A stretch of 64,000 bases of DNA from Candidatus Pacearchaeota archaeon (GCA_018303845.1 JAGVXH010000008.1:4092-68091); one strand, 5' to 3'. Positions 8,871-42,297 are shown, counted from the first letter of the stretch. The notes: a model not told the origin generated them from the sequence alone. Numbers and translations: made by a program.

Positions 8871-9638
8871 TTAGCTTAGTTCTACGTATAGGTAATATGC
8901 TGTTGAACTTGACCATGTATCTAATGCGACTTCTGGTACGAGCATTTGGAAATCGTAATCACTCCCGTCATAACCTGGTTCGTCTTCTTCTAAGATTGTT
9001 GCGAATATTATGTTTGTTGTATCATGAAGAATTACTTCTTCAAAAACTGTTGATTGGGTTGCGTTGTTGACATAGGTGTTTGTTGATGAACACGCTCCTG
9101 CCGATATGGTAGTTCCTGCGACTACAAAAGTTTGTGTGTTTGCGGCTGCTGTGAATGTTGTATTTATTCTGTCTTCTCCATCTTGACTTAATACTATACT
9201 TTCTGCTGTTATTTCAGCCGCGTCTGCGCAAGATATTGTTGCCCAGCTTGCAACACCTGAAGCTCTTGTCGCGTAAACTTCTCCGCCTACTGAAGTCAAT
9301 GTCCAATCATAGATTGTTGAACCTGAAGAATCGTCTAGTGTGAACCTTCCATCTATCCATCCCACGAAAGCTTTCCAATGTGGGTTTTGTACTGATGCTG
9401 TTATGTTGATTTTGGAGATGATTCCGCCTGAGATGTTAACAATTTGGCCAGATGTTGTTGCCCTGGTTTCGTTAGCTGTAATATTAATACTGCTTGGACC
9501 AGTTGGGGTTGCTAGTGCTATTGATGAGAAGAAAAGTATTCCAAAAAGTAATACAGTAAAGACCAGTATTTTTCCCGTGCTTTTTTTCTGATTTTGTTTT
9601 TCCATTGTTTTTTCTCTTTTTCTCTCTTTCTCTTTCAA
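8871..9638 (-). CDS. Secreted stand-alone 'WQG...YVEL' module protein (family C, divergent copy)
   Basis: Signal peptide (ILVFTVLLFGILFFSSIALA). It ends SDYDFQMLVPE ... TAYYLYVELS-stop and sits in tandem with 9673-10407. Confidence 0.7.
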   Translation of the reverse strand: MKEKERKREKTMEKQNQKKSTGKILVFTVLLFGILFFSSIALATPTGPSSINITANETRATTSGQIVNISGGIISKINITASVQNPHWKAFVGWIDGRFTLDDSSGSTIYDWTLTSVGGEVYATRASGVASWATISCADAAEITAESIVLSQDGEDRINTTFTAAANTQTFVVAGTTISAGACSSTNTYVNNATQSTVFEEVILHDTTNIIFATILEEDEPGYDGSDYDFQMLVPEVALDTWSSSTAYYLYVELS

Positions 9639-9672
9639 TGTCCCAAAAAAATTGGGAAAATAAAAAATAAAC

Positions 9673-10407
9673 TTATTCTAGCTCTACGTAAAAGTAGTAG
9701 ACAGTTGTTGCGATATCTGTTCCGTGACCATTTTCTAAGACTAGCATTTCAAAATCATGTAGTGCATCGTCGAAACCTACAACATCTTCTTCATCTAAAA
9801 TAGATGTAAAGATAACTGATGTAGGTGTGCCCGCATCGTCCGTTAATAGAACTTCTTCGAAATGGTTATTAGTGCTTGTGTGCGACCCGTCGTAAATACT
9901 TGTGCTTGCACAATCTCCTGCTGCAAATTGCACGTTATTTGTATAAAATAGGTCGTGAGTTCCTGCATCTGAGAATGTTTCATTTACTCCGTCGACATCA
10001 TCGGAAGCAATTCCGAAAGCTGTTTCCAAATCATCGTGATCATTTACTAGATCAAAACATGCGATTCCTGCCCAGTTCACTGTCACAATTGTTGTCGCGT
10101 AGATTTCACCTTCTGGTGAAGCTATTGACCAATTATACATTTGATGATCGCTTGCGTCCGCCAATTGAATTGTACCCGATACGTTACCGTAATAACCTTG
10201 CCATGACTGCGTTGTAGACATACCCGTAATACTTAATTCGGTTACGTTTCCTGCTAGTGCTGTATGGTTTGAGGGTGCATCCATTGGAGCTCGCTCTGAA
10301 GGCTTTACAATTGTATAATTTGCACCAAACGGTTGAACAGCTAACACGCTCGCCGCCATAAATGTTACTAATAGTAGCGATATTAATGTTAACCTCTCTG
10401 TGTTCAT
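9673..10407 (-). CDS. Secreted stand-alone 'WQG...YVEL' module protein (family C)
   Basis: Signal peptide, then AGNVTELSITG ... TQSWQGYYGNVSGTIQLADAS ... MYNWSIASPEGEIYA ... HDFEMLVLENGHGTDIATTVYYFYVELE-stop. Confidence 0.8.
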   Translation of the reverse strand: MNTERLTLISLLLVTFMAASVLAVQPFGANYTIVKPSERAPMDAPSNHTALAGNVTELSITGMSTTQSWQGYYGNVSGTIQLADASDHQMYNWSIASPEGEIYATTIVTVNWAGIACFDLVNDHDDLETAFGIASDDVDGVNETFSDAGTHDLFYTNNVQFAAGDCASTSIYDGSHTSTNNHFEEVLLTDDAGTPTSVIFTSILDEEDVVGFDDALHDFEMLVLENGHGTDIATTVYYFYVELE

Positions 10408-10493
10408 TTTTTAACCTCCTTTTGATTGTTCATGTCATTGTTCACAACATGTTACCCGCTTTAGATAACAATATTGTTTATAAACTTTCCGTT

Positions 10494-10566
10494 TTTTCAA
10501 AAGTGAAATGTGTTTTCAAAAGTGAAATGTGTTTTCAAAAGTGAAATGTGTTTTCAAAAGTGAAAT
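10494..10566. repeat. 3.8 tandem copies of a 19-bp direct repeat (ttttcaaaagtgaaatgtg) in a divergent promoter region
   Basis: Units lie at 10494-10512, 10513-10531 and 10532-10550, with a partial unit at 10551-10566. The three full units are identical and the array abuts a TATA-like box. Confidence 0.9.
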
Positions 10567-10573
10567 TTATATA
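10566..10573 (+). promoter_or_regulatory. TATA-like box (tttatata) for the wHTH regulator gene
   Basis: It lies 21 nt upstream of the ATG at 10595. The same TATA-to-ATG spacing (19-27 nt) recurs at several genes in the window. Confidence 0.45.
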
Positions 10574-10594
10574 GCTGTATTACATAATATTTTC

Positions 10595-11146: not shown

Positions 11147-14100
11147 TTAGATAATTTCCAAATAGAAAACTGCAGTTTGTTGATTTGTTGGATCGTAACT
11201 CCTTAAATTTGCTGGGACTCGGAGTTCATAATCGGCGTTTTCATAAGAGCCTGGTTGGTTTTTGCTTATCTTTGTTATGTAAATTATATCTTCTTTTTCT
11301 GTTGAATCATATTCTGTATTTGCGTCGTCAGATGTATCCCACAAAATTCCGGTTTTGAAGTTGGTGGAATTAATTGAAGTTGCTACGGGGACTGCTGTTA
11401 TTGTTTTGGCGAAGACTGTGTAGTCTAAAGTTTCGTTAATTTCTAGTGATGAGTTTAGATAGATTTCCGCATGAGAATCCCTAAAAGATGTCATTGACAA
11501 AGCAGTGTCTAATTCTTGAATATCGTTTGAAGAAGCTGTTCCAGAAATTTTTTTTCCTATTGCTTGAAGGGAAAGCCAGTTTATGTTTGAATCGTAATCT
11601 GCTACATAGATGTTTACTTTTGTTAGATTTGCTAGGTTCCAGTTTGTTAGTTCGTAATTGCTGGAATCGGTTAGCGTAAAATTTGTTCCTGCGTTAATGT
11701 TCCCATAGAAAAAGTGCCAGGACTGTACTGAGATTGAAGAATTTGCTTTGTTGTTCGTTTCGTTTAGTTCCGTTATTGTGTTTGGAAAATCTACTACTGC
11801 GAATACATTTGTTTCTCCGAGTGGTGCGTTCCATTGTATTGAAGTTGTGTTTAGGCTGAATTTATTTATTAAGATTGTTTTTGTTGTTCCGATTTGTGTA
11901 CCTGTGCCTTCTGGGTCTCCGCTATAGAATTTTACTTGGACCGATAAGATGTCTGCTCCGCCAATATTATAAACTGTCGCGTTGATTGTGATTGTTTCGT
12001 TTTCTGTTGGATTGTCGTTGCTGATTGAAATTGAAGTTCCATTGATTAAGAAGTCTGGATATGTATAATTGAAAGACCTCGTTTCCGATGTGTTTGTGTT
12101 TCCTGATGTGTCGGTGCAAGTTACATTCCAGAAATGAGTTCCTATCGAAAGGCCTGAGACTGGTTCTGTTCTTGGGAAACCTGATGTTGCAAAGGAAGTG
12201 TCTTCTATATTTCCGTCTACTACTAGGTCACAAGATAATAATGTATCTAACGCGTCTGTTGTTGTCCAGATAAATATTACATTGCTGTTTGCATTTATTC
12301 CTGCATTATTTTCCGGCGAAGTTAGGTTAATTGTTGGTGGTGTTATATCCCGGTAGAATATTCTTGTTTCCGACATGTTTAGGTTTTCGTCTGAGTCTGC
12401 ACATCCGACTGACCAGTTGTGGACTCCTTCAGATATTCCTGATATTATAAAATTGTTTTGGACGTTTTTGATTATTGATGAGGAGGATTGGTTCCTTGTT
12501 CCATCTAAGTAAATTGAACAATTCATTAGTCCGAGTGCATCAAGTGGCGTATAGCTGAAATTAATGCTTGGCTCTTGAGTATAGGTTCTGTTTGCTGGCG
12601 AGACTAGGTTGATTCTTGGCGGAGCAAAGACTGTGAAATTTGTCGGTGTTGATGTTGCTTGGTTTCCTGCCTCATCGGAACAATTTATTCTATATGTGTG
12701 ATTGCCGTCTACGATTAATAGATTTGTTATTTCTTGAGTTGCGTTAGTTGTGTTGCCTGACCATTCTAGGTCTGTATCAAGATAAAGGTCGCAGGAAATT
12801 TGTGAGTCTAGGTTGTCTGTTATCGTGAAGTTGAAAGTGACATTGTTATCGTTATAGATTTGGCCTTGTGATGGCAGTCCTAATTGGATTGTTGGCACGG
12901 CTGTATCTATGTAAACTTTTCTTGTTTCGCTTTCCCCCACTAGTCCGGTTGCGTCTGTTATATTTACGCTCCAAAGATATATCCCGTCTGCTAAATTTAC
13001 TGTGAAATTATTATTGACTCCGCTTATTATTTCACTTTGGTTTTCCATGGAAACAGCTCCGTTAATTATTAGTTCGGATTTTTGGAATCCTTCATCGTCT
13101 TGTGGGAGATATGTGAAGTTGAATGACCCCGTGTCCATCCATGTGTTGTTTAGAGGGGAGACTAGGTTTATTCCTGGGACTGTGGATTTTGTAAAGTTGT
13201 AAGTTGTACTTGTGTTTAAATTTCCTGCCAGGTCTGAACAGGTTAAGTTCCAGTAATGTACTCCGTCTGTTATTCCGGGGATGGTCCTTGTTATGTTGGT
13301 TGAATTTGAGACATTGAAGTTTGTGTCTCGGATATTTGAGTCTATGGTTAAATTACATTTCAGCGTTGGGCTTAGTGGGTCGAAGACTTCAAATTCGAAA
13401 GAGACATTGCTTGCGTAGACTTCTTCGTTTAATGGGAAATGGGGTGTGATTAAAGGTAGAGAGTTGTCTAGGAATATTTCGTTTTCTTCTGAGACATTTG
13501 ATAATCCGATGCCATCAGTACATTCGATGTAATATGTGTGTCTGCCGTCTGAAACCCCTTCTGCCTCTAAACTGTTTAATGCGCCAATGGATATCCCGCC
13601 TATTTGAGTTGTATTTATGACTCCATCTAGGTAGAATGCACAGGAAGTTATTTGGGTATTATCTGTTGGCGTGAATTCGGCTAGGATTGCGTTTCCTTTT
13701 ATGTATGTTCCATTTGTACTATTCATGTAGACTCTTGGGGATTCAGATATGTTTAGTGTCCATGTTGGGCTTGAAGAAGTATGCGAAGAATTGTCGGTGC
13801 AATCTATTCTCCATGTTCGAAGGCCGTCGGGAAGTCCTGAAAATAATTCGCTAGATATTACTCCGCTTGTTGACTGGAAGTTTGATTCGCTGACTGAGTC
13901 AATAAATAAGCTACAATCTAATTCTGAGTCAATTGAGTCTGTTACGTTGAACTCAAAATTTATTTCGCTTGAGGACGAAGAAGTTTCATTTGCTGGTGAG
14001 ATTAGAGTTATTGCTGGTGGAAATAGGTCTATTAACAATGTTCTGTTTGCTGGCATGACGGAAGTATTACTTAAGTCGAAGCATTGAACTGTCCAGTTAT

Positions 14101-17100
14101 AAATTCCGTCTGGGATTCCTGTGATATTAAACATATTATTTACCCCTAAGTTTATTGAGCTGTTTGTTGAATTTATTTGTCCGTTGATTAATAGCTCACA
14201 TCTGTTCATTCCTGAGTTGTCATCTGGCAAGTAAATGAATTCTATATTTCCTGTTGAGTTTAGGTGATTATCTGCTGGATCGATTAGAGATAATGTTGGC
14301 GGCAAGTCTGTGATGTCGAAGCTCCACATTGGAGTTGTGAAGGTGTTCTTGGCTTCGTCTATACAGGTTGCTTCCCATAGATGAGTTCCTCCTGATAGTG
14401 GGCCTGAAGAGACATTAACTGCTGTGTTATTTGAGACTGGAATGTTTGATTGAATTACTGTTCCGTCTAGCGATACATTACAAGATAAGTTTGAATCCAT
14501 GTTATCCGAGGCGTTGAAGCTTAGATTTAGAAATCCTGATGTGAAATTTGCGGTGTCTTTTGGTGAGATTAAATTTACGACTGGGGAGATTAAGTCTATG
14601 TAGAAAATTCTGGTTTCACTTGTATCTGTTGTTGCGATGTCGCTTAGATTTACGCTCCAATAATATGTTCCTGATGTTAACCCATTGACTGTGAAATTAT
14701 TTGCGCCCTCAATGATTGCGGTTTGGTTGCTTAAATTAAAGACTCCGTTTAGAGTTAAAGCTGAAGATTTGAAATCTCCGTTAACGTCGCTTGCATTGTA
14801 TGTCAGGTTTACGCTACTTTGATTGAACCACGTTCTGTTTGCCGGAGAAAGTAAACTTACTTCTGGGGGAACTCCTGATTGAATGCTTAAGGTATCTGAA
14901 TCTTCTGTAATTATTGTTTTATATCCACTAGTTGCTTTTACCGTGTAACTTCCGAAGACGTCCGTTGAAATAAAACTGTAGTTGAATAGTCCGCTTGCGT
15001 CTGTGAAGGTTCCTGTGTAGTTGAAGTTTAGTGCTTGGACTCGTGGGTTAAATGTTGAGTTGAACGAGCCCATTTCTACACGGTACTCTAGGTATCTTGA
15101 ATAGTTCAAGCTGTCAACGATGCCTTGCCCTTTTGAGAGTTCTGTCCAGCCTGTCCAACTGGATTTGTCGTTTGATGTTCTTACATATACTAGAACTCCA
15201 TTACAGTCTGTTGCGGTGAAGTCTACAGTTAGTCTTGGTCTTTCGCTTGCTGTTGAATACTGGCTACTTCTGAATTTTATTCCGCCTGAGCCTGATGCTT
15301 CTATTACTAATCCGTTATTTGAAATGTTTCGTAATGCCCATTTTGATGTTGTGCTTGATATGTCTAGTGATTTTGTTCCTGTCGTTGCTGTGCTCATTGT
15401 CCCTATTGATACTGTTCCACGAGAGGGAGAGCCAGCAATACTTTCTGAACTCCAGAGGTCTGAGGCTGTTCTGTAAATTGATGTTACTTCGCTTTCGTCC
15501 CATGCTTCTAGTATTTCATAAAATGTTGGATTGTCTCCGCTGTCGAAAAGAGTTAAACGAAGAGTCGCGGCGGAAACTGTTGCTCCATATGGAACTTTGT
15601 TCGCCCCAAAACCGAAAGCTTCTTCAAATTCCACAATGGACTTTTCTACGTCTGGAGATGAATCTATTGTTAGTTCTTCTGATGTTGCGAAGTTTACCGT
15701 TGGATTTCCGCTTGTTATATATGAATCTTTTGTACTGGAGTAACCCCACGAGTTTCCGTTTTGAAAATCTACTGTTCCTGAGCAACTTTGTGCCACATCG
15801 GTCCATGAAACGTTTTCCCAATTGACACGCGCTCCCGCATCTAGGATTCCGGTGAAGCTTCCTGTTGTATTAAGCGAATCTAATGTAAATTCTCCTCCTG
15901 AGTATGTCACGTTGTCATAACTTGAAATTATTTTTATATTGTCTTCGTCAAAATCTAAGACGCTTGCCGATGTGCCTTGATTTGTTAAGTTTGCAAATGG
16001 GATTAGAACGTTATTCCACCAAAAGTTGATTGCGTTATTTGGGATTGCTGTTCCGTTTGAAAATTCTAGAGAACCTGTCATAAAAATGATTTCTGCCCCT
16101 GGGCTTGGGTTTGGATTTATTATTAAATCTAATGTTGCCTTCAGGACTTGGAATGTCCCGTTGTAAGAACCAATTAACCCGGCTGTGTCGTTAGCGTATA
16201 CGGTGTAATTGTAGCTTTCTCCAAAGGTCTCGTCTGTTTCTATTTCTGCGCTCCACCAGTTTCCGAAAATATTTTCTAATACCACTCTTGTTTTTTCCAC
16301 TCCTCCGATTACGCCTTCCCAAATTACTACCCATACGCTGTCTGTTCTTAAGTCATCTACGTCCATGTTGAGCGTTAGGTTTTCGCCTTCTAACAATAAG
16401 TGGCTTGAGTTTACGATTTGCCCAGCTTCATTTGTTTGATTGATTAGGGTTACGGCTGGGGCTGTTGTATCAACTGAAAATGTTATACTTTTTTGCCCTT
16501 GTGAACCTGCTGAATCTTGAGCGTAGACTGTCCATGTGTTTTCTCCGTCTACGCTTGTTATTCCAGTGATGTCATCTCCACAGGTGATTGATGTATTTGT
16601 TGTTCCACCGTTAAGACTATACCAACATGCCACCAAGGTTACTCCAGAAGCATACGAGATTGAATAGTTCATTTTTACAATTTGGGAATTGTATACATAG
16701 GTTTGTGGGTAGTGTATTTCTATTGTTGGCGGAGATTCCCATGTGATGTTTAGGTCGTGGGCCGTAATTGTATTTGGTCCATCTGTTGAATATAAAAAAC
16801 GATAAATTAGATTTGAACCTGCGGCAAATCCCGAGAGGCTTCCTCCATTGGCCACGGTATACCAATTGTTTCCGTTGTCTACGGTTAATTGTAATGAGAT
16901 TGTATTTGTTGCGTCGACTCCTGATTCGGTCCATGAGGCGTGAGAAATTCTTGTTATTTCCTGACTGGTGTTCATTGTGTGTGAGGTGACATTTCCTGTT
17001 CCTCCGGTCATGGTTATGTTTCCATAATTCCATGTTACATTATTTGATATCCTAATTGATGAGTTGTCTAGGAATTCGTCGAAATAATGTTTACCGAAAT

Positions 17101-20100: not shown

Positions 20101-23100
20101 CATTTGACATTGTTGCGTCGGAGCGAACAATTAGATGAGACAAATCGTCTAGATTATCTTGGACTGCATATGTTGCGGTGACCATTTGATCTGGGTTCCA
20201 AGTATTGGATATTACTCCGATACCTACTGCTCCGTCATTATTTCCGTTGCTGGCGTCTAGCTGATTGGATGTAATTTGAAGAAAGGATGCATCGTTATAG
20301 ATTTGTGACCAGACAACACCTTCATCTGGAGTGTGTGTCGTGAATAGGTTTCCGTTTGCTCCAGTAAATGTATCGTTGAATCTCAGATACATTCCGTAAC
20401 TTAATGGGAGGGGAATTATTGTTAGGTTTCCGCTTTGACTTTCTGTTGTTTTTTCTCCATCGGTAACTATTAAGCGACAGCTCCAGACTTCTCCGTCTGT
20501 TGTATTTGAGCTGCTTAGAGATACTAGGAATTCGGTTCCTGATGAATATGAATTGTTGTAACTCGTGGTGGAATATATCCCTGCATTTCTATACCAGATG
20601 GCTGTCACATTCATTAAATTTGATTCTGGGTCCGTTAATGTTGCAAAGCAGTTTAGGTCTGAAGTTGTGTAGTTGGTTCCTGTTGTCGAATTTATTTGGG
20701 CTTCTAATGAAGGTGGAAGATTCGCACTTAGGATTGTTAGAGAATTAGATGTTGATGTTGTACCTTCTAGTGCCCCGTCATTTGGAGTTGCTTCGCATGA
20801 CCAGACTTCGCCCGTCGTTGTTTCTTGCGAAACGATTGTATTGTAGTTTTGATTGTAGAGTACGGCTATTTGTTCTGCGCTCATTACGAAAGGGAAGGCT
20901 AAAAAGTTATCTAAGCTTCCATTGAAATAAACTCTAGTTGCGGCCTCGAGGACACCTATCTCGTTAAAGGCTGTTGTTTTTAGTCCTGTTTCTGAATTTG
21001 CTTGGGAATTGAAGTTTCCGTCTACATACATCTGGACTAAGCCCGTTGTGGAATTTCTTGTCATCGCCACATGATGCCATGCGTTGTTGTTGATTGGATT
21101 TGTCGAATATGCCTGTGCCCCATTTCCAGCGCTAATACCAATTCTACCTGCTGCGGATAGGTGCCCCCAGAAAATGTCATTTCCATTTCCTGCCGCTTCT
21201 GTTCCGAAAATTGTTGGAGCTTGCCAGATTGTGTCTGACCCTGGCTGAGTCGTTCTTATCCAAAACATTACAGTTCCTGTATCCCCAAAAATTGCGGACA
21301 TGTCTTGGCTGATTGTTAATGAGGTTGACCCGTTGAAATTATAGTAGCCTGTTGAATCGTGGGAGCCTGTTGATTGATATGATGCAGTTGATGAGACTGT
21401 GTAAGTTGTTGCGTAGTTTGGAGTTGATGAGGATGTGCTTCCCATGTTGAAGGGAAGATTTAAGGTTGCATAATCGCTTCCATTTTTTATCCAATTATAT
21501 GTTTGATATATTGTGTCACCGTCTATGTCTGCTGAAGTTGGATTACAGGTTAGGTTTTCTGTTGTCATGTTTGTATTGAGACTTGAGTTTAAAATTATTG
21601 AAGATGTTGTCGGGGTTGTGTTTAGTAAAATATTTACATTAATGTCATCAAGCCAAATGTTTTCTCCGTTTGCTAGGTTCGCGTTGAATCCTATTCTAAA
21701 ACTAGAAATGAAATATTGGGAATCTGTTGTTATATATTCTTTGTAGTACCACGTGTCTTCCGTTGCCTGATCTGCTCCAAAACTATCTATTAAATCATAA
21801 GTGGTTCCATCATAAAAATACACATCTATGTCTGTGTCTTCTAGGTCGTCTTCATTGTACCAGAAAGTTGCGTTGATTGAAGATGCTTGGCTTGCATCAA
21901 TGTTTACAGATTGTAAGTCTCCTTCATTATTGTTTGCTGCTCTTACTGCTTGGCTTCCTGAATGTGTTCTGTCGGATACTATGTCCCATCCTCCTACTGT
22001 TCCCCATTGAGCAAAGGCTGTTTCGAATCCTTCTGAAAAAACGGATGGGATTGAAGGGTCAACAATGTAATCGAAAAGAATTGCTCCTCCTACTACTAAT
22101 AAATCAAATGTATCTTGTGGAGAACTTAGATTTGTTAGTAGTATTTGGTATTTTTTGTTTTCTTGAATTGGTCCAAAATCTGCTAGTTTTATATCAGAAT
22201 CTTTTTCATAAACTTCAACTGTTGCATTGGTTGAATTTGATTCTGCGTAAATTGTGATATCATTTTTATTTGTTAGTTCTTTCTCGAAGACGATTCTAAG
22301 AAAATTGTTTTCTGGGATTAAGTGAAAAATCTTATCTAAGGCTTTAACTTTTTCGAAGATGTCTTCTATGAAGTTTTTATTTTCGTCTAAGTGTTCTGCT
22401 TTCGTGATTATTATTATTTCGAAGGTTTGGGTTGATAGGTGTGGGACTGTCCACTCGATTGTGTCTAGAAGCGAGTTGTTGTTTGTGTCTAGGGCTTGGA
22501 ATGGTAAGAATTTGCCTTCTTCTTTCCAGTAAACCTTTATTGAAGATTCCTTTGATTGATTTAATTCTTCCTGAAGTGATGTCGAGACTAGGACATTTTC
22601 ATAATGTAATTCTGCGGAGATTTCTACTTCCTTTCTATCAGAAGAAATTATTTTCTCTTTCTTTATTGGGGAAGGAGTTTCGTAGCTTAAGACTGTATCT
22701 TGTGGGGCTCTTGATATTGCTATGGTTTTTTGAGGATCTTCTGAAATTAGGTTTGAGATGGTATCTGTTAGCGAGGTTTTTATTTTAAAATCCAGTGAGA
22801 TATTACTTGACAGGATTGTGATGTTGCTTGAGGATTCTGGGATTTTGATTTGGATATTTTCTCCTGATGTAATTTCCTTTTCCCATTTGACTGGGAGTCC
22901 GACTTTAATTTGAGTTTGGGTTGAGTTGATGTCTATCACTTCTGACTGCTGGGGACTTGGGGGAGTATGATTTATTTTTTCTAGTGGCACAAGAGCCGTG
23001 TTTTCTTCTGTTGTTGTTTCGAAATCTGGCTGGACTTCGAACATGATTTGTTTTGATGTTGATTCTGATTTGATGTTGATTGCGAAGTCGCCTGATGTAT

Positions 23101-23335
23101 CTGGCTGAAAGATGAAATAAGGTTTGTCTGATTTGTAGAATAGCGGTCCGGTCGGTGTTTTGATTTCTAAAGTGTAGTTGCCAATTTCACCGATTTCTAT
23201 TTTTATTTTTTCGCCTAGTATGTATTGGTCTTCGGTCGCTGAGGCCACGAAGATTAATAGAATTATTATTAAAACGAAGGCTAACGCCAACATTAAACTT
23301 ACAGTTCCCACTTTTGACATACATTTCTTGTTCAT
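11147..23335 (-). CDS. Giant (4062 aa) secreted adhesin-like surface protein
   Basis: Uninterrupted 12.2-kb ORF with an N-terminal signal/anchor (VSLMLALAFVLIIILLIFVASA). It has an N-module shared with the 4903-aa giant, several jelly-roll/ConA-like domains, one LamG domain and Ig-like repeat arrays. It ends in a CARDB domain followed by the C-terminal WQG...YLEII module. There is no C-terminal TM. Confidence 0.9.
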   Translation of the reverse strand: MNKKCMSKVGTVSLMLALAFVLIIILLIFVASATEDQYILGEKIKIEIGEIGNYTLEIKTPTGPLFYKSDKPYFIFQPDTSGDFAINIKSESTSKQIMFEVQPDFETTTEENTALVPLEKINHTPPSPQQSEVIDINSTQTQIKVGLPVKWEKEITSGENIQIKIPESSSNITILSSNISLDFKIKTSLTDTISNLISEDPQKTIAISRAPQDTVLSYETPSPIKKEKIISSDRKEVEISAELHYENVLVSTSLQEELNQSKESSIKVYWKEEGKFLPFQALDTNNNSLLDTIEWTVPHLSTQTFEIIIITKAEHLDENKNFIEDIFEKVKALDKIFHLIPENNFLRIVFEKELTNKNDITIYAESNSTNATVEVYEKDSDIKLADFGPIQENKKYQILLTNLSSPQDTFDLLVVGGAILFDYIVDPSIPSVFSEGFETAFAQWGTVGGWDIVSDRTHSGSQAVRAANNNEGDLQSVNIDASQASSINATFWYNEDDLEDTDIDVYFYDGTTYDLIDSFGADQATEDTWYYKEYITTDSQYFISSFRIGFNANLANGENIWLDDINVNILLNTTPTTSSIILNSSLNTNMTTENLTCNPTSADIDGDTIYQTYNWIKNGSDYATLNLPFNMGSTSSSTPNYATTYTVSSTASYQSTGSHDSTGYYNFNGSTSLTISQDMSAIFGDTGTVMFWIRTTQPGSDTIWQAPTIFGTEAAGNGNDIFWGHLSAAGRIGISAGNGAQAYSTNPINNNAWHHVAMTRNSTTGLVQMYVDGNFNSQANSETGLKTTAFNEIGVLEAATRVYFNGSLDNFLAFPFVMSAEQIAVLYNQNYNTIVSQETTTGEVWSCEATPNDGALEGTTSTSNSLTILSANLPPSLEAQINSTTGTNYTTSDLNCFATLTDPESNLMNVTAIWYRNAGIYSTTSYNNSYSSGTEFLVSLSSSNTTDGEVWSCRLIVTDGEKTTESQSGNLTIIPLPLSYGMYLRFNDTFTGANGNLFTTHTPDEGVVWSQIYNDASFLQITSNQLDASNGNNDGAVGIGVISNTWNPDQMVTATYAVQDNLDDLSHLIVRSDATMSNAYIFSFSTTAANTRIWKRVGSTNTVLETNCGGDNQFTTGDIVTLRITGTSIEVYDGSTLICSTTDSDLDSGSPGVGIGSSYLETAGNVDAQRLDNVLMYSANSAPTDPSPLMYSLDGPNDDVTDYNCTALVEDIDADQVTAYVIWYKNDSQDSNTSQNNVASTTNFSVTLSGSRTAAGEVWKCSARYYDGKNYSNWVNSTGITILPYSAPPSISITRIFPIGDNIFVEQNQLFNVTLNVTCLAGNCGTINVTLDPIQETYSDFETGTEGFEHFPLNAKVDEWHISTEYTNNGSQSWKVGDTGTGDYADYSESILVSPTYDIIANSTFDFYHYMDAEVYGAGNGAYDGGYLQYQLDGGSWQKVTSFISGGYNTIYRVYSGGPPLTAGEPVWGDGLVGTSSNFSHVVINMTNITSGSSAENVSFRFHWFSDESVNEEGWYIDSVNFTTQTPNMDKGIIPVNAGTPFYTTAASNPLTTSSLSEGQSQLITFLVNATGELARKYFFFAYANMTTNLSTSNITSKWNVTISVEQELPNITINYPTPGEINDATPILNISLTGEGDTLWYNINGGTNQTLCSACSFSNDEILYLREANYTLNVFVRNPMGEENSESVSFNVDMRNNYYDTYLDSSYELDSEELDLLEGNITLSLARETIINETFDNAENWLLSGGRWELSSGELIQTLDSADTLAIYDTLILNNITDYNISFSMYAADNDQSGVVFAYEDPQNYYRCRLYQQTSQGGIERVSGGSSTSLASASTMYTLSAWNTFVLEIKNKTVSCYINGVQTATASNVSFPEGKVGIFNTNNLNVRYDNFSTIITGGKKIGTFTSYSVKLINEITKFTNITWNSFSTNVNNILRVEVTVDNGNTWYEATKDSSLTIPSGEDFAYRLFFEAQNISIMSLLDLNISWTNGIDPPPTILIEGITLPTEQDFTPMLNVTLIGDAAALIMSINGRANQTICTDCTGSQIFPVVLNESTQTIRFYANNTMGQLSTNSTTFNVDFGKHYFDEFLDNSSIRISNNVTWNYGNITMTGGTGNVTSHTMNTSQEITRISHASWTESGVDATNTISLQLTVDNGNNWYTVANGGSLSGFAAGSNLIYRFLYSTDGPNTITAHDLNITWESPPTIEIHYPQTYVYNSQIVKMNYSISYASGVTLVACWYSLNGGTTNTSITCGDDITGITSVDGENTWTVYAQDSAGSQGQKSITFSVDTTAPAVTLINQTNEAGQIVNSSHLLLEGENLTLNMDVDDLRTDSVWVVIWEGVIGGVEKTRVVLENIFGNWWSAEIETDETFGESYNYTVYANDTAGLIGSYNGTFQVLKATLDLIINPNPSPGAEIIFMTGSLEFSNGTAIPNNAINFWWNNVLIPFANLTNQGTSASVLDFDEDNIKIISSYDNVTYSGGEFTLDSLNTTGSFTGILDAGARVNWENVSWTDVAQSCSGTVDFQNGNSWGYSSTKDSYITSGNPTVNFATSEELTIDSSPDVEKSIVEFEEAFGFGANKVPYGATVSAATLRLTLFDSGDNPTFYEILEAWDESEVTSIYRTASDLWSSESIAGSPSRGTVSIGTMSTATTGTKSLDISSTTSKWALRNISNNGLVIEASGSGGIKFRSSQYSTASERPRLTVDFTATDCNGVLVYVRTSNDKSSWTGWTELSKGQGIVDSLNYSRYLEYRVEMGSFNSTFNPRVQALNFNYTGTFTDASGLFNYSFISTDVFGSYTVKATSGYKTIITEDSDTLSIQSGVPPEVSLLSPANRTWFNQSSVNLTYNASDVNGDFKSSALTLNGVFNLSNQTAIIEGANNFTVNGLTSGTYYWSVNLSDIATTDTSETRIFYIDLISPVVNLISPKDTANFTSGFLNLSFNASDNMDSNLSCNVSLDGTVIQSNIPVSNNTAVNVSSGPLSGGTHLWEATCIDEAKNTFTTPMWSFDITDLPPTLSLIDPADNHLNSTGNIEFIYLPDDNSGMNRCELLINGQINSTNSSINLGVNNMFNITGIPDGIYNWTVQCFDLSNTSVMPANRTLLIDLFPPAITLISPANETSSSSSEINFEFNVTDSIDSELDCSLFIDSVSESNFQSTSGVISSELFSGLPDGLRTWRIDCTDNSSHTSSSPTWTLNISESPRVYMNSTNGTYIKGNAILAEFTPTDNTQITSCAFYLDGVINTTQIGGISIGALNSLEAEGVSDGRHTYYIECTDGIGLSNVSEENEIFLDNSLPLITPHFPLNEEVYASNVSFEFEVFDPLSPTLKCNLTIDSNIRDTNFNVSNSTNITRTIPGITDGVHYWNLTCSDLAGNLNTSTTYNFTKSTVPGINLVSPLNNTWMDTGSFNFTYLPQDDEGFQKSELIINGAVSMENQSEIISGVNNNFTVNLADGIYLWSVNITDATGLVGESETRKVYIDTAVPTIQLGLPSQGQIYNDNNVTFNFTITDNLDSQISCDLYLDTDLEWSGNTTNATQEITNLLIVDGNHTYRINCSDEAGNQATSTPTNFTVFAPPRINLVSPANRTYTQEPSINFSYTPLDALGLMNCSIYLDGTRNQSSSSIIKNVQNNFIISGISEGVHNWSVGCADSDENLNMSETRIFYRDITPPTINLTSPENNAGINANSNVIFIWTTTDALDTLLSCDLVVDGNIEDTSFATSGFPRTEPVSGLSIGTHFWNVTCTDTSGNTNTSETRSFNYTYPDFLINGTSISISNDNPTENETITINATVYNIGGADILSVQVKFYSGDPEGTGTQIGTTKTILINKFSLNTTSIQWNAPLGETNVFAVVDFPNTITELNETNNKANSSISVQSWHFFYGNINAGTNFTLTDSSNYELTNWNLANLTKVNIYVADYDSNINWLSLQAIGKKISGTASSNDIQELDTALSMTSFRDSHAEIYLNSSLEINETLDYTVFAKTITAVPVATSINSTNFKTGILWDTSDDANTEYDSTEKEDIIYITKISKNQPGSYENADYELRVPANLRSYDPTNQQTAVFYLEII
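11150..11725 (-). other. C-terminal 'WQG...YVEL'-type module of the 4062-aa giant (approximate bounds)
   Basis: SWHFFYGNINAG ... NIYVADYDSNINWLSLQAIG ... GILWDTSDD ... EDIIYITKI ... ADYELRVPANLRSYD ... TAVFYLEII-stop. The motif order is the same as in family C and in the 616-aa protein. Confidence 0.65.
11730..12050 (-). other. CARDB-like domain in giant 1 (approximate)
   Basis: ETITINATVYNIGGADILSVQVKFY ... FAVVDFPNTITELNETNN. Confidence 0.6.
12060..14880 (-). repeat. Array of about 10 Ig-like ~90-aa repeats in giant 1, alternating between two subtypes (approximate)
   Basis: Repeat starts: PPEVSLLSP, SPVVNLISP, PPTLSLIDP, PPAITLISP, SPRVYMNST, LPLITPHFP, VPGINLVSP, VPTIQLGLP, PPRINLVSP, PPTINLTSP. 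Odd units carry (E/A)L.(L/I)NG ... G.Y.WSVN/WTVQC. Even units carry D..DS.L.C.(V/L) ... G.H.W...C.D..GN. Confidence 0.7.
20850..21470 (-). other. LamG/ConA-like (Laminin_G_3-type) domain in giant 1 (approximate)
   Basis: GTVMFWIRTTQPG ... NAWHHVAMTRNSTTGLVQMYVDGN ... FNGSLDNFLAFPFVMSAEQIAVLY. Confidence 0.65.
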
Positions 23336-24366: not shown

Positions 24367-25059
24367 ATGAGTAAGGTTGTTGGGATTATGTCGTTTAAAG
24401 GTGGTGTTGGGAAAAGTGTTTGTGCTATAAATTTGGCGAGTGGTTTGCAGAGATTGGGGAAAAGGGTTTTGGTTGTTGATGGGAATTTTTTGAGCCCGAA
24501 TTTACATTTGTATCTTGGGTTATTGAATCCGGGAAAGACTTTGAAGGAAATTATTCGAGAAGGGATTTCTCCGCAGAATGCTATTTATACACATAAGTCT
24601 GGCATTCATTTGCTGCCTTGTAATTTTTATAAGGATGTTAATTTTGGAAAATTTCGGGATATTATCAATGGATTGAGGGAGCGCTATGATTTTATTATTG
24701 TTGATTCGGGTCCGAGTTACAGCGAAGAAGTTATTGCGGTTTTGATGGTTAGTGATGAATTGCTTTTTGTTGCGACGCCTGATTATCCGACTTTAGCTGC
24801 GACTGTTCGGGCGAGTAAGTTTGCGAAATTTAAAGATGTTAAGGTTCGGGGAATTGTTGTCAATAGGAAAAGGGGAAGGGGTTTTGAGGTCAAGAAGCTG
24901 GAGATTGAGCGGACTGTTGGTGTTCGGGTAATTTCGGAGATTAAGGAAGATTTGAAGATGATGAAAGCTGTTAAATTATTTGTTCCTGTTGTTTGGGAAT
25001 ATAAATGGAGTTCGAGTGGTCGGAGTTTTATGAAATTGGCTAGGGAAATTAATTCTTGA
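24367..25059 (+). CDS. MinD/ParA-family P-loop ATPase
   Basis: Deviant Walker A SFKGGVGKSV, then VLVVDGN, and a Walker B-like FIIVDSGP. Confidence 0.8.
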   Translation: MSKVVGIMSFKGGVGKSVCAINLASGLQRLGKRVLVVDGNFLSPNLHLYLGLLNPGKTLKEIIREGISPQNAIYTHKSGIHLLPCNFYKDVNFGKFRDIINGLRERYDFIIVDSGPSYSEEVIAVLMVSDELLFVATPDYPTLAATVRASKFAKFKDVKVRGIVVNRKRGRGFEVKKLEIERTVGVRVISEIKEDLKMMKAVKLFVPVVWEYKWSSSGRSFMKLAREINS

Positions 25060-26169
25060 TTATTCCACTCTGGATTTTACTAGAAGTGCTAGGCTAAAAG
25101 TTGTTGTAGCTATTCCTAAAATTAGAGTGAAAGCTGCAATTGCTTTTGAGAAATTTAACGCTATCATGTCTAGATAGGAAATTATTAAGTTGAAACCCAC
25201 CATTTGCAAAGCTAATTCTTTGATGAATTTTCCGCCGCCGAAGAGAAGGAAGAATGCAATTAAAAATGGGAATAGGACACCGCCAAGAATCCAGCGATTT
25301 TGTAAACTCGTGTCCTCGCATTTTATTTCTGTATGGGGAAGTCCTTGTAGCTCATAGATGATTTTGCTTTCTTCGCAGTTTGATTGAGATGATGTTATAA
25401 GATGCCCAAATTCATGTATACTAATGGTTCCGATGAACATGAAGTTTGTGATGATTATAATGAAGACAAAATGTTTTAGAAAATGTATTAATGGGGACTC
25501 TGGTTCTTGTGGTAGTGGAAAATATTGTTCTGGATTTTGCTTAAGAAATTTTAGGAAATGAATTATAAAGATTAGAAAAAGAATACTTGAGATTAGGGCT
25601 AGAATTGATATAAGGTTTTGCCAGAAGATTGCGAAGAGATAAAGGAAGAGGGAAATTGAGGTATAGATAATTATGTGTTTTGTGATTTTTTCTTGGATGT
25701 TGGTTGCTACTAGGAATGTTAAGAGAGTTACGAAAAATGATATTGGTATCGTAAGATGGATTGACTGTGGGGCATAGAATATTAGAGGGATTAGAAATGT
25801 GAATGGGATTAGTGCGTAAAATATTTTTTTATTTTTTCTTATTTTATATAGGATTGTTAAGAGGCATATGGTTTGAATTGTTAAAACTGCCGAAAAGACT
25901 GTGAGAAAATCTGTTGTATCAAAAGAGAAAAAGTTTGTTGTCCAAAGGAGTAGAAGGATTGCAAGAATGAGATAGATTAGCCCTAGGACGATGAGGGGAA
26001 TTTCCTTGGAATTGAAAGATGAGGTTTTGATTTCTTTGATTAGAGAAATGAATATTATTAGAAATATTGCAGAAGTTATGATTGATGCCAGTAGGAGGAT
26101 TATTTCCATTGCATATTGAAAGGCAATGTTGTTTAAAAGTTTTGAGTAATAAAAAAAATTGCTCCCCAT
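25060..26169 (-). CDS. Polytopic membrane protein with an HExxH motif (putative intramembrane/membrane-embedded metalloprotease)
   Basis: 369 aa with about 10 hydrophobic helices. The motif ISIHEFGHLITS lies between helices. It is the last gene of the minus-strand string that starts at 33073. Confidence 0.5.
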   Translation of the reverse strand: MGSNFFYYSKLLNNIAFQYAMEIILLLASIITSAIFLIIFISLIKEIKTSSFNSKEIPLIVLGLIYLILAILLLLWTTNFFSFDTTDFLTVFSAVLTIQTICLLTILYKIRKNKKIFYALIPFTFLIPLIFYAPQSIHLTIPISFFVTLLTFLVATNIQEKITKHIIIYTSISLFLYLFAIFWQNLISILALISSILFLIFIIHFLKFLKQNPEQYFPLPQEPESPLIHFLKHFVFIIIITNFMFIGTISIHEFGHLITSSQSNCEESKIIYELQGLPHTEIKCEDTSLQNRWILGGVLFPFLIAFFLLFGGGKFIKELALQMVGFNLIISYLDMIALNFSKAIAAFTLILGIATTTFSLALLVKSRVE

Positions 26170-26191
26170 AAGGGGAGCTTGATTTTAAAAT

Positions 26192-26905
26192 TTATTCGAG
26201 TTCTATGTAAAAGAAATATGGAGTTGTGGCTACATCGCCAGCATGTCCATCTTCTAAAACTAGCATTTCGAAATCATGACTTATTGAGTCAAAGCCCGAC
26301 ATATCGTTTTCTAGTAGAGATGCGAAAACTGTAGTCGTACCGTCGTGCAATAACACTTCTTCGAAATTGCCATCTGTGCTTGTCTCGGCACTATCGAATA
26401 TATCAGTACTCATACATTCACCTGCTGTGAATTCTTCGCTCCCAACATAGAACGCGGCATGTGAATTAGCTCCAGTAAAAGTTTCATTAACACCGTCTGC
26501 TGAATCGTCGATGTTAAAAGTTGTTTCTAGCGCTGCTCCGTAAGTTGCCCAATCGAAACATGCTATGCTTGCCCATGTGATTGAGTTTGCTGTAGAAGCA
26601 AAGACTTCACCACTTGGAGAGGCCAGGGACCAGTTGTACATTGGATTTCCTGAGGCATCTGTCAACTTAATTGCTCCTGAAACATTACCGAAATAACCTT
26701 GCCAAGATTGTGTAATTGAATTTCCAACAATTGTTAATTCCGTAACATTTCCTGCGGTTGCTGAATGATTTGCCGCGATGTCTGCTGCTCCTCTAGTGCT
26801 TGCGCCTGGGGTAGCTGTCAAAACTCCGTTTGGATCTGCGAGAACAAAACCAAAACTTGAAACTGTTAGTATCGCTAATAATAAAAATGCGTTTATTCTA
26901 TTCAT
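26192..26905 (-). CDS. Secreted stand-alone 'WQG...YVEL' module protein (family C)
   Basis: Signal peptide, then AGNVTELTIVG ... TQSWQGYFGNVSGAIKLTDAS ... MYNWSLASPSGEVFA ... HDFEMLVLEDGHAGDVATTPYFFYIELE-stop. Confidence 0.8.
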   Translation of the reverse strand: MNRINAFLLLAILTVSSFGFVLADPNGVLTATPGASTRGAADIAANHSATAGNVTELTIVGNSITQSWQGYFGNVSGAIKLTDASGNPMYNWSLASPSGEVFASTANSITWASIACFDWATYGAALETTFNIDDSADGVNETFTGANSHAAFYVGSEEFTAGECMSTDIFDSAETSTDGNFEEVLLHDGTTTVFASLLENDMSGFDSISHDFEMLVLEDGHAGDVATTPYFFYIELE

Positions 26906-26911
26906 CTTATT

Positions 26912-27535
26912 TTATTTTAAACCTCCTTTCAGATTTGATTCGTCTTTCGCAGTTTCCCGCGAGACGTATATCGAGAAAAGGTGCTCAGGGTCCAGCTTCT
27001 CCAGAGAGGCGGAAGAAGTTGTCACCTGAAAAGTGACCTTGTTCTCTAAATTTTTTTGAACCTCATTTATTAGATGAGTGATAGAATCGTCTTGTGATAC
27101 GATGTATATTTTTGGAATTGCAGTTTTTGTGTAAACTGACATTGCCTTTATTTTATCTAGTTGATTTTGTATTTGCCAGAAGAATTTTTGCAAGATAATT
27201 TGATGCTCAGAATTTTTTAGGCACCAAATGTTTATGATTGTTTTGTTTTCTTTTGATAGTGGAAGAAGGGTTTTGCCTGGGGCATTTTTTGCAAGAGGAA
27301 TTAGATAAAGGGATTCTTCCGATATTGAAAAGAGTGTTCTTGGTTTTCCTTTTTCGAAGGCTCCCGTTTTTTGTTTTTTAACTAGACCTGCTGCTTCTAG
27401 GAGCTTTAGCTGCTGGCTCACAAAGGAAGTTGTTGTTTGTAAGGATTCTGAAATTTCCATCGGGGACGAAGGCTGCTCTATTATCATTTTCAATATGTCC
27501 CATCTGGGATTACTAAGAAAAGAATCAAGCTCCAT
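26912..27535 (-). CDS. ArsR-like winged-helix regulator with a C-terminal domain; paralog of 10595-11146
   Basis: NPRWDILKMIIEQPSSPMEISESLQTTTSFVSQQLKLLEAAGLVKKQK. A TATA-like tttaaata lies about 20 nt upstream of the ATG. Confidence 0.7.
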   Translation of the reverse strand: MELDSFLSNPRWDILKMIIEQPSSPMEISESLQTTTSFVSQQLKLLEAAGLVKKQKTGAFEKGKPRTLFSISEESLYLIPLAKNAPGKTLLPLSKENKTIINIWCLKNSEHQIILQKFFWQIQNQLDKIKAMSVYTKTAIPKIYIVSQDDSITHLINEVQKNLENKVTFQVTTSSASLEKLDPEHLFSIYVSRETAKDESNLKGGLK

Positions 27536-27697
27536 AACTAGAATATATTCATAAAACCTATTTAAATGTTTTGTTAATTAGGTGTATTAGTAATTTGGGC
27601 AAAGTAGTAATTTTGATTATTTTGTTGATTATTTTAACTTATTTAATTGGCTATTTAATTTATTAGTTGATTAGTAATATAAAAAAATAATTTGGGC

Positions 27698-28471
27698 TTA
27701 TTCCAGTTCTACGTAGAAGTAATATGGCGTTGTTGCGGTATCTGTTCCGTGACCGTCTTCTGTTACTAACATTTCAAAGTCATGTGTTCTTCCGTCGAAG
27801 CCCAGAACATCTTCGTTTAATAGTGATGTGAAAATTACGCTTTGGCTAGTCGGTTCGTAAAGTAAAACTTCTTCGAATTTGTCATTTTCTCCAGCTCCCG
27901 TATTACTGAAAAGTCTTGTGCTTTGACATTCGCCTTCTGAAAATTCAAAGTTGCTTGTATAGAATGTGTTATGAGTTCCGGCTCCTATTAGATTGAAAGT
28001 TTCATCTATTCCGTCTACATCGTCGAATTTTATGTTAAATAATTCTTCTAATTGTGTTAAGTTTGTTCCATATCTGGAAGTCGTTCCGCCGTTTCCAGAT
28101 TCACTTGCGTATGATCCATTGGCGCTATAGTTGAAGCACTGAACATTTGCCCAACTTATTGAGTTTGATGTTGATGCGTAAATTTCACCTTGAGGAGAAG
28201 CCAACGTCCAATTATACATTTGGTTGTCACTTGCGTCGGATAGTTGGATTGTACCTGTTATATTACCGAAATATCCTTGCCAACTTTGAGTTATTGTGAA
28301 CCCATCTATGTTGATTTCCGTTACATTTCCTGCTTGAGCGGGAATTGATGCTGGGGCATCTGGAGTTGCCCTTGTTGAATTAATTATTGTGTAATTTGCC
28401 CCGAAGGGTTCAACTGCTAGGACTGGAGAAATTATGGACAGAATTAATAGTGCCAAAACTAATCTCTTCAC
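27698..28471 (-). CDS. Secreted stand-alone 'WQG...YVEL' module protein (family C), co-operonic with the ATPase
   Basis: Signal peptide, then AGNVTEINIDG ... TQSWQGYFGNITGTIQLSDAS ... MYNWTLASPQGEIYA ... HDFEMLVTEDGHGTDTATTPYYFYVELE-stop. Its start overlaps the stop of 28468-29301 by 4 nt. Confidence 0.8.
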   Translation of the reverse strand: MKRLVLALLILSIISPVLAVEPFGANYTIINSTRATPDAPASIPAQAGNVTEINIDGFTITQSWQGYFGNITGTIQLSDASDNQMYNWTLASPQGEIYASTSNSISWANVQCFNYSANGSYASESGNGGTTSRYGTNLTQLEELFNIKFDDVDGIDETFNLIGAGTHNTFYTSNFEFSEGECQSTRLFSNTGAGENDKFEEVLLYEPTSQSVIFTSLLNEDVLGFDGRTHDFEMLVTEDGHGTDTATTPYYFYVELE

Positions 28472-42284: not shown

Positions 42285-42297
42285 TGACTTCGTAAAC

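Follow-up and report, generated by a model that had tools for sequence, protein, structure and literature searches.

A shared module links small secreted proteins, giant surface proteins and a membrane ATPase in Pacearchaeota and related archaea

Introduction

What is a protein module for, if one genome carries it both as several small secreted proteins and at the very end of much larger ones? This question is raised by a stretch of 64,000 nucleotides from a Candidatus Pacearchaeota archaeon (JAGVXH010000008.1:4092-68091), referred to below as the window, which always means the whole stretch. The window has a G+C content of ~37%, and its proteins have their closest relatives in metagenome-assembled genomes (MAGs) of Pacearchaeota, Woesearchaeota and Nanoarchaeota, with identities of up to 91-95% to metagenomic proteins and 75% to the best species-representative genome. 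Few uncultured archaea are as widespread as Pacearchaeota and Woesearchaeota, which are thought to live attached to other cells.

Here we report that the module connects giant adhesin-like proteins of up to 6770 amino acids (aa), conserved small secreted proteins and a membrane ATPase of the DNA-pump superfamily, which had not been linked before. From sequence comparison we propose, at about even chances, that the module is a homotypic assembly domain, with small subunits forming a surface polymer, the giants joined to it by their C-terminal copy and the ATPase-linked copy serving as membrane anchor.

Seven copies of one module in three classes of protein

The module occurs in four small stand-alone proteins (A to D types), at the C-terminus of a 4062-aa giant and of a 616-aa protein (p616), and in a 1153-aa membrane protein (Table 1). 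The first six were listed in a preliminary description of the window, and their open reading frames (ORFs) were all found in place, with translations bearing the quoted motifs. The module had been called strictly C-terminal, which holds for these six but not for the seventh copy, which lies inside the 1153-aa protein and raises the total in the window from six to seven. The B, C and D types share 49-58% identity over their full length, and the A type shares 31-35% with them (BLASTP E 1e-28 to 3e-36). The four small proteins are homologous as described, but the A type lacks several of the motifs said to be common to all: SGGIISK replaces AGNVTE and NPHWKAF replaces TQSWQGY. Translation of the A type probably starts at an internal ATG near 9605, because the match to its orthologues begins there.

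Pairwise similarity between stand-alone and fused copies is weak (26-32% identity), and the C-terminal 200 aa of the giant share 33% identity with those of p616 over 192 aa. We therefore compared profiles built from 48 sequences of the stand-alone family (alignment A3), 18 of the fused family (A2) and ten membrane-anchored sequences (A5). In hhalign, the stand-alone and fused families matched at 95.7% probability (E 9.2e-9) over 173 columns that extend to the C-terminus of each, the anchor and stand-alone families at 99.1% (E 3.9e-19) over 177 columns, and the anchor and fused families at 95.5% (E 1.4e-8). A hidden Markov model (HMM) of the stand-alone family, run against the 397 six-frame ORFs of the window, retrieved p616 (E 1.6e-7, HMM positions 57-241) and the giant (E 1.1e-5), and the seventh copy was also matched by HMM searches of this set. 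Chance similarity is ruled out by the BLASTP, HMM and hhalign statistics. Homology between the C-termini of the small and the large proteins, for which a profile-profile comparison had been named beforehand as the refuting check, is upheld.

The same order of motifs in fused and stand-alone copies, noted earlier by eye, was recovered by MAFFT: SWQGYYG/SWHFFYG/AWQGIYG, FEEVLL/TGILWD, VIFTS/IIYIT, HDFEMLV/ADYELRV and YYFYVELE/AVFYLEII fall in common columns. Only G74, D139 and F183 are invariant across the three classes. As so few core residues are conserved, the classes appear to share a scaffold and not a catalytic or ligand-binding site.

In both large proteins a CARDB domain directly precedes the module, as had been proposed and as Pfam confirms. 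Against the PF07705 cut-off of 22.7 bits, the C-terminal fragment of the giant scored 46.7 bits (E 4e-12; 6e-10 for the whole protein) and p616 scored 25.6 bits. The fused copies begin right after CARDB and lack the N-terminal AVQPFGANYT segment of the small proteins. The giant also carries Laminin_G_3 and Big_13 domains, and none of the module carriers has a C-terminal transmembrane (TM) helix. No further significant copy was found in the 4903-, 329-, 360-, 393-, 404-, 558- and 675-aa proteins of the window, the 4903-aa giant giving only a partial match of 14.8 bits.

The module ends its carrier in a wide range of proteins

A search with the stand-alone family yielded 867 homologues. A profile of all three classes (A4) was then searched against 1.84 billion representative proteins (50%-identity clusters), which gave 1922 clusters at E ≤ 1e-3, 834 of them at E ≤ 1e-30. 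The 150 best representative proteins measure 198-6770 aa, 61 of them at least 1000 aa, and in 149 the module ends no more than 4 residues from the C-terminus; the lone exception has an acidic insertion inside the module. All sequences inspected have a CARDB domain ending in NE(T/S)NN just before the module. In one protein from the profile search, P0150 (394 aa, CARDB plus module), the GILWD and EDVV strands are separated by an acidic insertion of ~90 residues with many D, E, N and S, and this loop thus tolerates large insertions.

A copy of the module on a membrane ATPase

The seventh copy occupies residues ~61-251 of the 1153-aa protein. This protein starts with a basic N-terminal tail and a first TM helix (residues 34-54), continues outside the cell for ~630 residues and, after a second TM helix at ~685-708, has a cytoplasmic ATPase domain. 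The extracellular stretch holds the module, two CarboxypepD_reg domains and more beta-rich sequence; in this anchor class a short conserved TGY(A/S)TY(I/V) separates the TM helix from the first strand of the module. Membership of the FtsK-HerA superfamily is indicated by Pfam scores above cut-off for DUF87 (PF01935; 37.5 versus 23.2 bits) and HerA_C (22.9 versus 22) together with the Walker A and B motifs (GATGMGKS and LLVFDEVH), and the best relatives among PDB sequences are HerA chains (E ~3e-7). The protein stays far below the NCBIfam equivalog cut-offs for HerA (30.9 of 800 bits), CedD (28.1 of 600) and TraD (24.5 of 366), and CooC_C gave only a sub-threshold match of 17 bits on the CarboxypepD_reg region. 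We found 93 homologues at E ≤ 1e-5, of which most of those listed have the full architecture at ~1,100-1,350 aa; the remainder are shorter, several being labelled partial, and those with a name are called only 'DUF87 domain-containing protein'.

The three kinds of carrier also occur together elsewhere. At L003 and L004, which come from more distant genomes (L-numbers denote loci from relatives' genomes), a divergent 248-aa stand-alone copy, a CARDB-plus-module protein and a membrane-anchored module protein are encoded side by side. The minus-strand gene at L003 11001-12050 and that at L004 10917-11999 encode a protein of 349/360 aa that consists of a signal, the module, a Cys-rich GYCGD(G/K)IC...C..C..C segment and a C-terminal TM helix. 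Its best match in the window is the N-terminus of the 1153-aa protein (tblastn, 30% identity over 259 aa, E 1e-18). The 349/360-aa protein itself lacks an ATPase domain, and there is no gene for an ATPase within 10 kb of it.

A strictly C-terminal module and an FtsK/HerA-type ATPase might together suggest secretion. The module would then be an export or sorting signal, like the C-terminal domain (CTD) of the type IX secretion system (T9SS) or the signals of the type VII system (T7SS), read by a machine built on the ATPase, with the small proteins as small substrates. Apart from the C-terminal position in 149 of 150 proteins, the constant link to this ATPase and to other membrane proteins speaks for such a role, and the T7SS does employ an FtsK-like ATPase. 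However, all carriers already have N-terminal Sec-type signals, 190 aa is large for a signal, and Pfam gave no match to Por_Secre_tail or any other sorting domain. Moreover, the ATPase domain is cytoplasmic and its own module copy extracellular, so that this copy is unable to act as a cytoplasmic recognition signal. We consider a sorting function distinctly improbable.

The small proteins are acidic and carry a Sec-type signal

Signal peptides were judged by direct reading of the N-termini. In all four small proteins, charged residues and a hydrophobic core are followed by an A-x-A-like site (VLA|VQP, VLA|DPN, VLA|VEP or ALA|TPT), which agrees with the earlier assignment of Sec-type rather than class III signals. 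No hydrophobic helix remains after the predicted cleavage, and the helix in the AlphaFold2 (AF2) model is limited to residues 3-19; on both counts, neither the class III signal nor the retained N-terminal helix of type IV pilins and archaellins is present in the small proteins.

The mature B, C and D types have 31-36 acidic versus 2-6 basic residues and the A type 25 versus 6, giving isoelectric points of ~4. The B type, for example, has 36 D+E versus 2 K+R and 6 sequons. The mature small proteins carry 5-8 N-glycosylation sequons and two conserved Cys. In acidity, sequons and Cys they resemble archaeal envelope and filament glycoproteins, and judging from the sequons the small subunits are probably glycosylated. 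After the signal, the AVQPFGANYT segment is >80% conserved among 123 sequences and is confined to the stand-alone class, which also has many invariant acidic and aromatic residues and the HDFEMLV..GH motif.

A strong Shine-Dalgarno sequence, AAAAGGAGGTTAAAAA, stands directly before the ATG of the B type (10408-10440, minus strand) and is kept in orthologous loci, which fits a high translation of the small subunit.

Predicted structure and searches for a known family or fold

From the 48-sequence alignment, AF2 predicted the stand-alone protein to be mostly beta with two short helices (mean predicted local distance difference test (pLDDT) 79.5, predicted template-modelling score (pTM) 0.69). 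Block means of pLDDT in the core, residues 57-243, are mostly ~80-94, and residues 26-53, including AVQPFGANYT, are below 50. For the fused copy, one confident model was obtained (pLDDT 83, pTM 0.83). In the monomer models the C-terminal aromatic/aliphatic strand, which reads YYFYVEL in the stand-alone protein, is placed within the module's own sheet, with pLDDT ~80-85.

The module had been said to belong to no named family, and we likewise found none. Pfam returned nothing for the four stand-alone proteins, and among 37 alignment members from all three classes only the upstream CARDB scored (11 of the 37); NCBIfam gave no match for the B type, and the PDB sequence profiles gave none apart from one at E 0.2 to a protease. 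A known family is therefore rejected for these libraries. Both AF2 models were compared by Foldseek with a PDB library current to April 2026, and the stand-alone model also with BFVD. The best PDB hits had E 1.1 (stand-alone) and 0.49 (fused copy), nothing in BFVD was below E 0.09, and all TM-scores were <0.25, at the moderate model quality given by pLDDT 79.5 and 83. A known fold was thus rejected on the PDB and BFVD searches. No description of the module, the gene cluster or the ATPase fusion was found in full-text literature searches, which did not extend to subscription-only papers. Neither the module nor its gene system appears to have been described before, and both are far from known kinds by sequence and fold.

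These data bear on whether the module could be a monomeric ligand-binding or enzymatic domain, with for example a glycan of the host surface as its ligand, which was spread by domain shuffling and has no tendency to self-associate. The invariant acidic and aromatic residues and the HDFEMLV..GH motif of the stand-alone class could bind a metal or a sugar, and the carriers are adhesin-like, with Laminin_G_3, Big_13 and CARDB domains. However, neither the fused nor the anchor class conserves these residues, a binding domain is not expected solely at the extreme C-terminus, which is the cell-proximal end, and neither fold nor sequence matched a known binding domain or enzyme. This function is improbable in our judgement.

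The carriers are encoded in conserved gene clusters

Gene context was sampled by a pattern scan with one genome per species, in which 80 loci were kept from 242 relatives. They come from Pacearchaeota, Woesearchaeota, Nanoarchaeota and unclassified-archaeon MAGs, with 'Diapherotrites' represented by one contig. The survey of MAGs for co-occurring stand-alone and fused copies that the preliminary description had suggested was thus run, and it revealed conserved synteny.

Two arrangements recur. Cluster 1 reads: giant with C-terminal module, (divergent MarR-like regulator), B/D type, A type, 329-aa sequon-rich protein in one or two copies, and 189-aa Recombinase-domain protein. Cluster 2 reads: (616-aa-like protein), 558-aa membrane protein, module-ATPase, 277-aa coiled coil, D type, ArsR/MarR regulator, C type, (A type), HExxH membrane protein, 360-aa protein and giant. 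The full pattern of cluster 1 was present in 29 of the 80 loci and that of cluster 2 in 19; nearly all of the other 32 are partial arrangements, mostly on short contigs, two having a stand-alone gene only. We treat the two clusters as one system because in L053, L067 and L083 they are merged, together with the genes for the 404-, 675- and 393-aa proteins, into one continuous block. The window carries all cluster genes, spread over 7262-33073, 35538-44109 and 60072-63725.

The stand-alone types keep their places within the clusters. The A type follows the B/D-type gene in 37 of 38 cases, and the D type follows the coiled-coil gene in 20 of 20. Ancient paralogues in fixed positions are expected if each has a distinct place in one assembly. 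The coiled-coil gene was found in 34 loci, where it invariably follows the ATPase gene and precedes a stand-alone gene; its product has no signal or TM helix and only SMC/Rad50-like coiled-coil matches. The 369-aa HEFGH protein is conserved downstream of the C type in 22 loci. It is a candidate for the enzyme that processes the small proteins, the protease role being a guess. HEFGH is the same string as in site-2 proteases; membership of the M50 site-2 protease family was rejected, as Pfam and NCBIfam gave no match even at E 5.

The small beta proteins, the ATPase and the Recombinase-domain gene at the end of cluster 1 recall a provirus or virus-derived particle, in which the small proteins would be single-jelly-roll capsids and the ATPase a packaging enzyme. 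FtsK/HerA-type ATPases package DNA in PRD1-like viruses and sphaerolipoviruses, which have two small beta capsid proteins. However, the small proteins of the window carry Sec signals and sequons, the ATPase has a 630-aa extracellular loop, and no fold matched in BFVD or PDB. In addition, the cluster keeps the same chromosomal place beside ribosomal protein genes and is syntenic in many genomes, and the recombinase-like gene is a 189-aa protein matching only the Recombinase domain (PF07508). A viral origin of this kind is barely credible, being largely refuted by the Sec signals, the extracellular loop, the fold search and the synteny.

Table 1. Features of the module system in the window (aa, amino acids; TM, transmembrane)
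Feature	Position	Strand	Remarks
Stand-alone B type, 244 aa	9673..10407	-	Sec-type signal, VQPFGANYT segment, module ending YYFYVELE
Stand-alone A type, 255 aa as listed	8871..9638	-	divergent paralogue
Stand-alone C type, 237 aa	26192..26905	-	commonest type after the helix-turn-helix gene (12/27)
Stand-alone D type, 257 aa	27698..28471	-	4-base overlap of its start with the coiled-coil gene's stop
Module of the 4062-aa giant, last ~195 aa	11150..11734	-	whole gene 11147-23335
CARDB directly before the giant's module	11741..12058	-	Pfam PF07705, giant residues 3760-3865
Module of the 616-aa protein (p616)	61338..61919	+	whole gene 60072-61922
CARDB of the 616-aa protein	61092-61346	+	Pfam, residues 341-425
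Seventh module copy, residues ~61-251 of the 1153-aa protein	32321..32893	-	whole gene 29612-33073
HerA/FtsK-superfamily P-loop ATPase domain of the 1153-aa protein	30014..30886	-	cytoplasmic, after the second TM helix
277-aa cytoplasmic coiled-coil protein	28468..29301	-	between the ATPase gene and D
ArsR/MarR-type winged-helix regulator	26912..27535	-	between D and C; Pfam HTH_5, MarR_2; position conserved in 31 loci
369-aa polytopic membrane protein, ~10-12 TM, HEFGH motif	25060..26169	-	downstream of C
329-aa secreted protein, 15 sequons	7874..8863	-	after the A-type gene; in 50/84 loci
MarR/IclR-like regulator, 205 aa	10529..11146	+	divergent from stand-alone B
189-aa protein, N-terminal CxxC...CxxC	7262-7831	-	Recombinase domain (PF07508) is the only Pfam match
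558-aa type-I membrane protein (signal and C-terminal TM)	62049..63725	+	adjoins the 616-aa protein; upstream of the ATPase gene elsewhere
Two type-I membrane proteins, 675 aa and 404 aa	35538..38776	-	within the merged cluster elsewhere (L053, L067, L083, L014, L052)

A model of assembly and the evidence for and against it

The preliminary description had likened the small and large proteins that share the module to the subunits and adhesins of one polymer. This idea is strengthened by the ATPase-borne copy, the synteny across the 80 loci and the C-terminal position in nearly all of the best carriers. In the proposed mechanism, the module of Pacearchaeota/Woesearchaeota-type DPANN archaea would be a mostly beta domain through which proteins assemble with one another outside the cell. 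We infer that copies of the module bind one another, and that the Sec-exported, acidic small paralogues (A and B/C/D types) would be the repeated blocks of a cell-surface polymer. Large adhesin-like proteins, namely the giant, the 616-aa protein and very many others of up to 6770 aa, would be fixed to this polymer through their extreme C-terminal copy, and the copy in the extracellular loop of the two-TM HerA/FtsK-type ATPase protein would tie the polymer to the cell. The large proteins would thus be decorations or tips, the small proteins the repeating shaft and the membrane copy the base. The ATPase, its coiled-coil partner and the HExxH membrane protein may also have roles in assembly or transport. 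The polymer may be a fibre, a two-dimensional lattice or a tube or stack of rings.

A homotypic partner is the simplest explanation because an integral membrane protein with the module needs no anchoring domain. This point also bears on the possibility that the module is an envelope anchor which, like the surface layer homology (SLH) domain, binds a non-protein or S-layer component, with the stand-alone copies forming a coat or occupying the same sites. An anchor would explain why so many different large proteins carry the module strictly at the C-terminus, and an invariant ligand would suit the strong conservation of the stand-alone copies. On the other hand, anchor-only proteins as three to four ancient paralogues in a fixed gene order are hard to explain, the integral membrane ATPase would need no such anchor, the three residues invariant across the classes leave no shared binding site evident, and Foldseek gave no fold match to lectin, carbohydrate-binding module or SLH structures. 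We regard an envelope anchor as unlikely. As proteins made of an anchor or a signal alone would be purposeless, we rank homotypic assembly above the anchoring, ligand-binding or enzymatic, and sorting functions.

Several observations weigh against homotypic assembly. The stand-alone proteins are unusually conserved, with 50-90% identity between MAGs of different labelled candidate phyla, and this could instead reflect binding of an invariant ligand. Only one of the five AF2 models of the fused copy is confident, the other four being poor. In the predicted monomers the beta structure is complete and includes the C-terminal strand, and no open groove was visible in them, as judged without coordinates. 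The second giant of the window (4903 aa) lacks the module, and hence not all large surface proteins use it.

The monomer models also bear on how a polymer might be held together. The earlier suggestion of polymerization through a donated C-terminal strand finds no support in the AF2 models, which keep that strand in the sheet of its own monomer. If any strand is donated, the N-terminal AVQPFGANYT segment is a better candidate than the C-terminal one: its conservation is >80%, the monomer model gives it a pLDDT <50, and the fused copies lack it.

If assembly through the module is the true function, it would define a new class of archaeal surface structure and provide about ten genes as targets for studies of DPANN-host contact. 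At the least, the module represents a large new domain family worth naming, with ~1,900 clusters at 50% identity.

A more speculative version concerns transport. Like its relatives, the HerA/FtsK-type ATPase presumably forms a hexamer, whose six outer modules might template stacked rings of the small paralogues. The result would be a hollow, giant-tipped stalk across the envelope that pumps DNA or other macromolecules between the DPANN cell and its host. Few biosynthetic pathways are generally ascribed to Pacearchaeota/Woesearchaeota-type archaea. The transport version is a long shot, which if true would make the stalk a new kind of archaeal nanomachine, possibly a feeding or gene-exchange organelle.

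Comparison with known surface structures

In chaperone-usher pili (FimH/PapG, FimA/PapA, PapH), the small subunits share a fold with the C-terminal domain of the tip adhesin, and that domain lacks the N-terminal extension of the subunits. The fused copies of the module likewise lack the N-terminal segment of the small proteins, in which hydrophobic residues alternate (F-G-A-N-Y-T-I), and by analogy the polarity of the proposed assembly would resemble that of FimH/FimA/PapH. The systems differ in that the base here would be a HerA-type ATPase in an archaeon with a single membrane, and there is no similarity in sequence or fold. The chaperone-usher pilin fold was not detected, SafA and FaeG appearing in Foldseek only at E >3 and TM <0.15, and Pfam scans of the cluster genes found no chaperone or usher.

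Sulfolobus threads, Pyrobaculum bundling pili and Pyrodictium cannulae are archaeal filaments that are not of type IV (PMC9715654, PMC9245690 and PMC12518558). Threads, the TasA-like bundling pili and cannulae are made of Sec-exported, glycosylated, beta-rich subunits that polymerize outside the cell without a type IV machine; the small proteins of the window have Sec-type signals, sequons and acidity in common with them. The title of the cannulae paper names calcium coordination, which would suit very acidic subunits such as those described here. The preliminary description had seen no similarity to threads or bundling pili, and we also found none to these or to cannulae, either in sequence (PDB profiles) or in fold (Foldseek, nothing at E <0.4). 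To our knowledge, none of the three has been described with giant adhesins or with a membrane ATPase carrying the subunit fold.

The type V pili of Bacteroidia (FimA/Mfa1) also use one fold for anchor, stalk and tip, with the anchor staying membrane-bound. Their assembly needs a protease, and the cluster here includes the conserved HExxH membrane protein, for which a protease function is a guess. Unlike the module proteins, type V pilins are bacterial outer-membrane lipoproteins that exchange a C-terminal strand after Rgp cleavage, and they share neither sequence nor fold with the module. As with the T9SS CTD and SLH, one terminal module is found here on a large and varied set of big secreted proteins; however, the module here is twice as large and occurs in addition as stand-alone paralogues and within a membrane ATPase. 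No T9SS CTD, PGF-CTERM, SLH or cohesin-dockerin domain was matched by Pfam or NCBIfam in the 37 alignment members or the window proteins, and the partners of T9SS and SLH are absent here.

The 1153-aa protein has the P-loop core of FtsK, VirD4/TraD, EssC of the T7SS and the archaeal CedB-type DNA importers, and like coupling proteins it has two TM helices followed by the ATPase. It differs in its 630-aa extracellular loop with the module and CarboxypepD_reg domains, and in having no NurA, VirB or Ced partners near its gene.

Neighbouring genes and minor features of the window

The shared promoter region of the B type and the divergent MarR-like gene contains 3.8 perfect tandem copies of a 19-bp unit (10494-10566). 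The repeat core, TTTCAYTTTTGAAA, which reads TTTCACTTTTGAAAA on the other strand and forms a TTTCA/TGAAA palindrome, recurs in the same intergenic region of L001, L005, L006, L007, L046, L065 and L083. These seven loci have 2-4 copies of the core each, between two TATA-like boxes. The repeats are probably the operator of the adjacent MarR-like regulator. The real start of this regulator is probably the ATG near 10596, because the listed GTG start overlaps the repeat.

The 329-aa protein has a paralogue of 393 aa (38804-39985, minus strand) with 41% identity. This paralogue is of mosaic make-up: over its first ~125 residues (HWIAGY...) it shares 39% identity with the N-terminus of the 616-aa protein (60072-60470, plus strand), and the 41% applies to the rest, from which we conclude that domains were shuffled among the surface proteins of the cluster. 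In the 329-aa family (~40 loci), a conserved (I/L)FLE lies in the hydrophobic N-terminus, which ends (V/I)(I/F)AG|(V/I)G(S/E)xN(V)TV. The glutamate in the helix recalls prepilins, though no (K/R)-G cleavage site is conserved in the family. A possible type IV pilus link through this protein, which lacks the site and has a Sec-like AG|VG end, is not used as evidence.

The 189-aa protein, for which Pfam gave no match to a resolvase catalytic domain, ends cluster 1 in 18 loci and adjoins ribosomal protein genes in L001. A ParA/MinD-type ATPase gene (24367-25059, plus strand) adjoins that of the HExxH membrane protein; this neighbourhood is limited to four loci (L008, L017, L043 and L044), whose cluster proteins are among those most similar to the window's.

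In the 4903-aa giant (44094-58805, minus strand), tandem arrays at 58331-58659 with periods of 27, 24 and 12 encode PEQQ and ESNQTTPA repeats near the N-terminus. The start of the 360-aa gene (43027-44109, minus strand) overlaps the stop of this giant by 16 bp, and elsewhere the 360-aa gene lies just upstream of a giant. A membrane protein of the SpoIIM family (41392-42195, minus strand) is encoded between the surface-protein clusters.

No tRNA gene was found in the window (1-64000). The GC skew, taken as G over C on the plus strand, is positive in 15 of 16 bins of 4 kb and -0.013 in the bin 28001-32000. The cumulative skew climbs through the window except in that bin, although most long genes lie on the minus strand.

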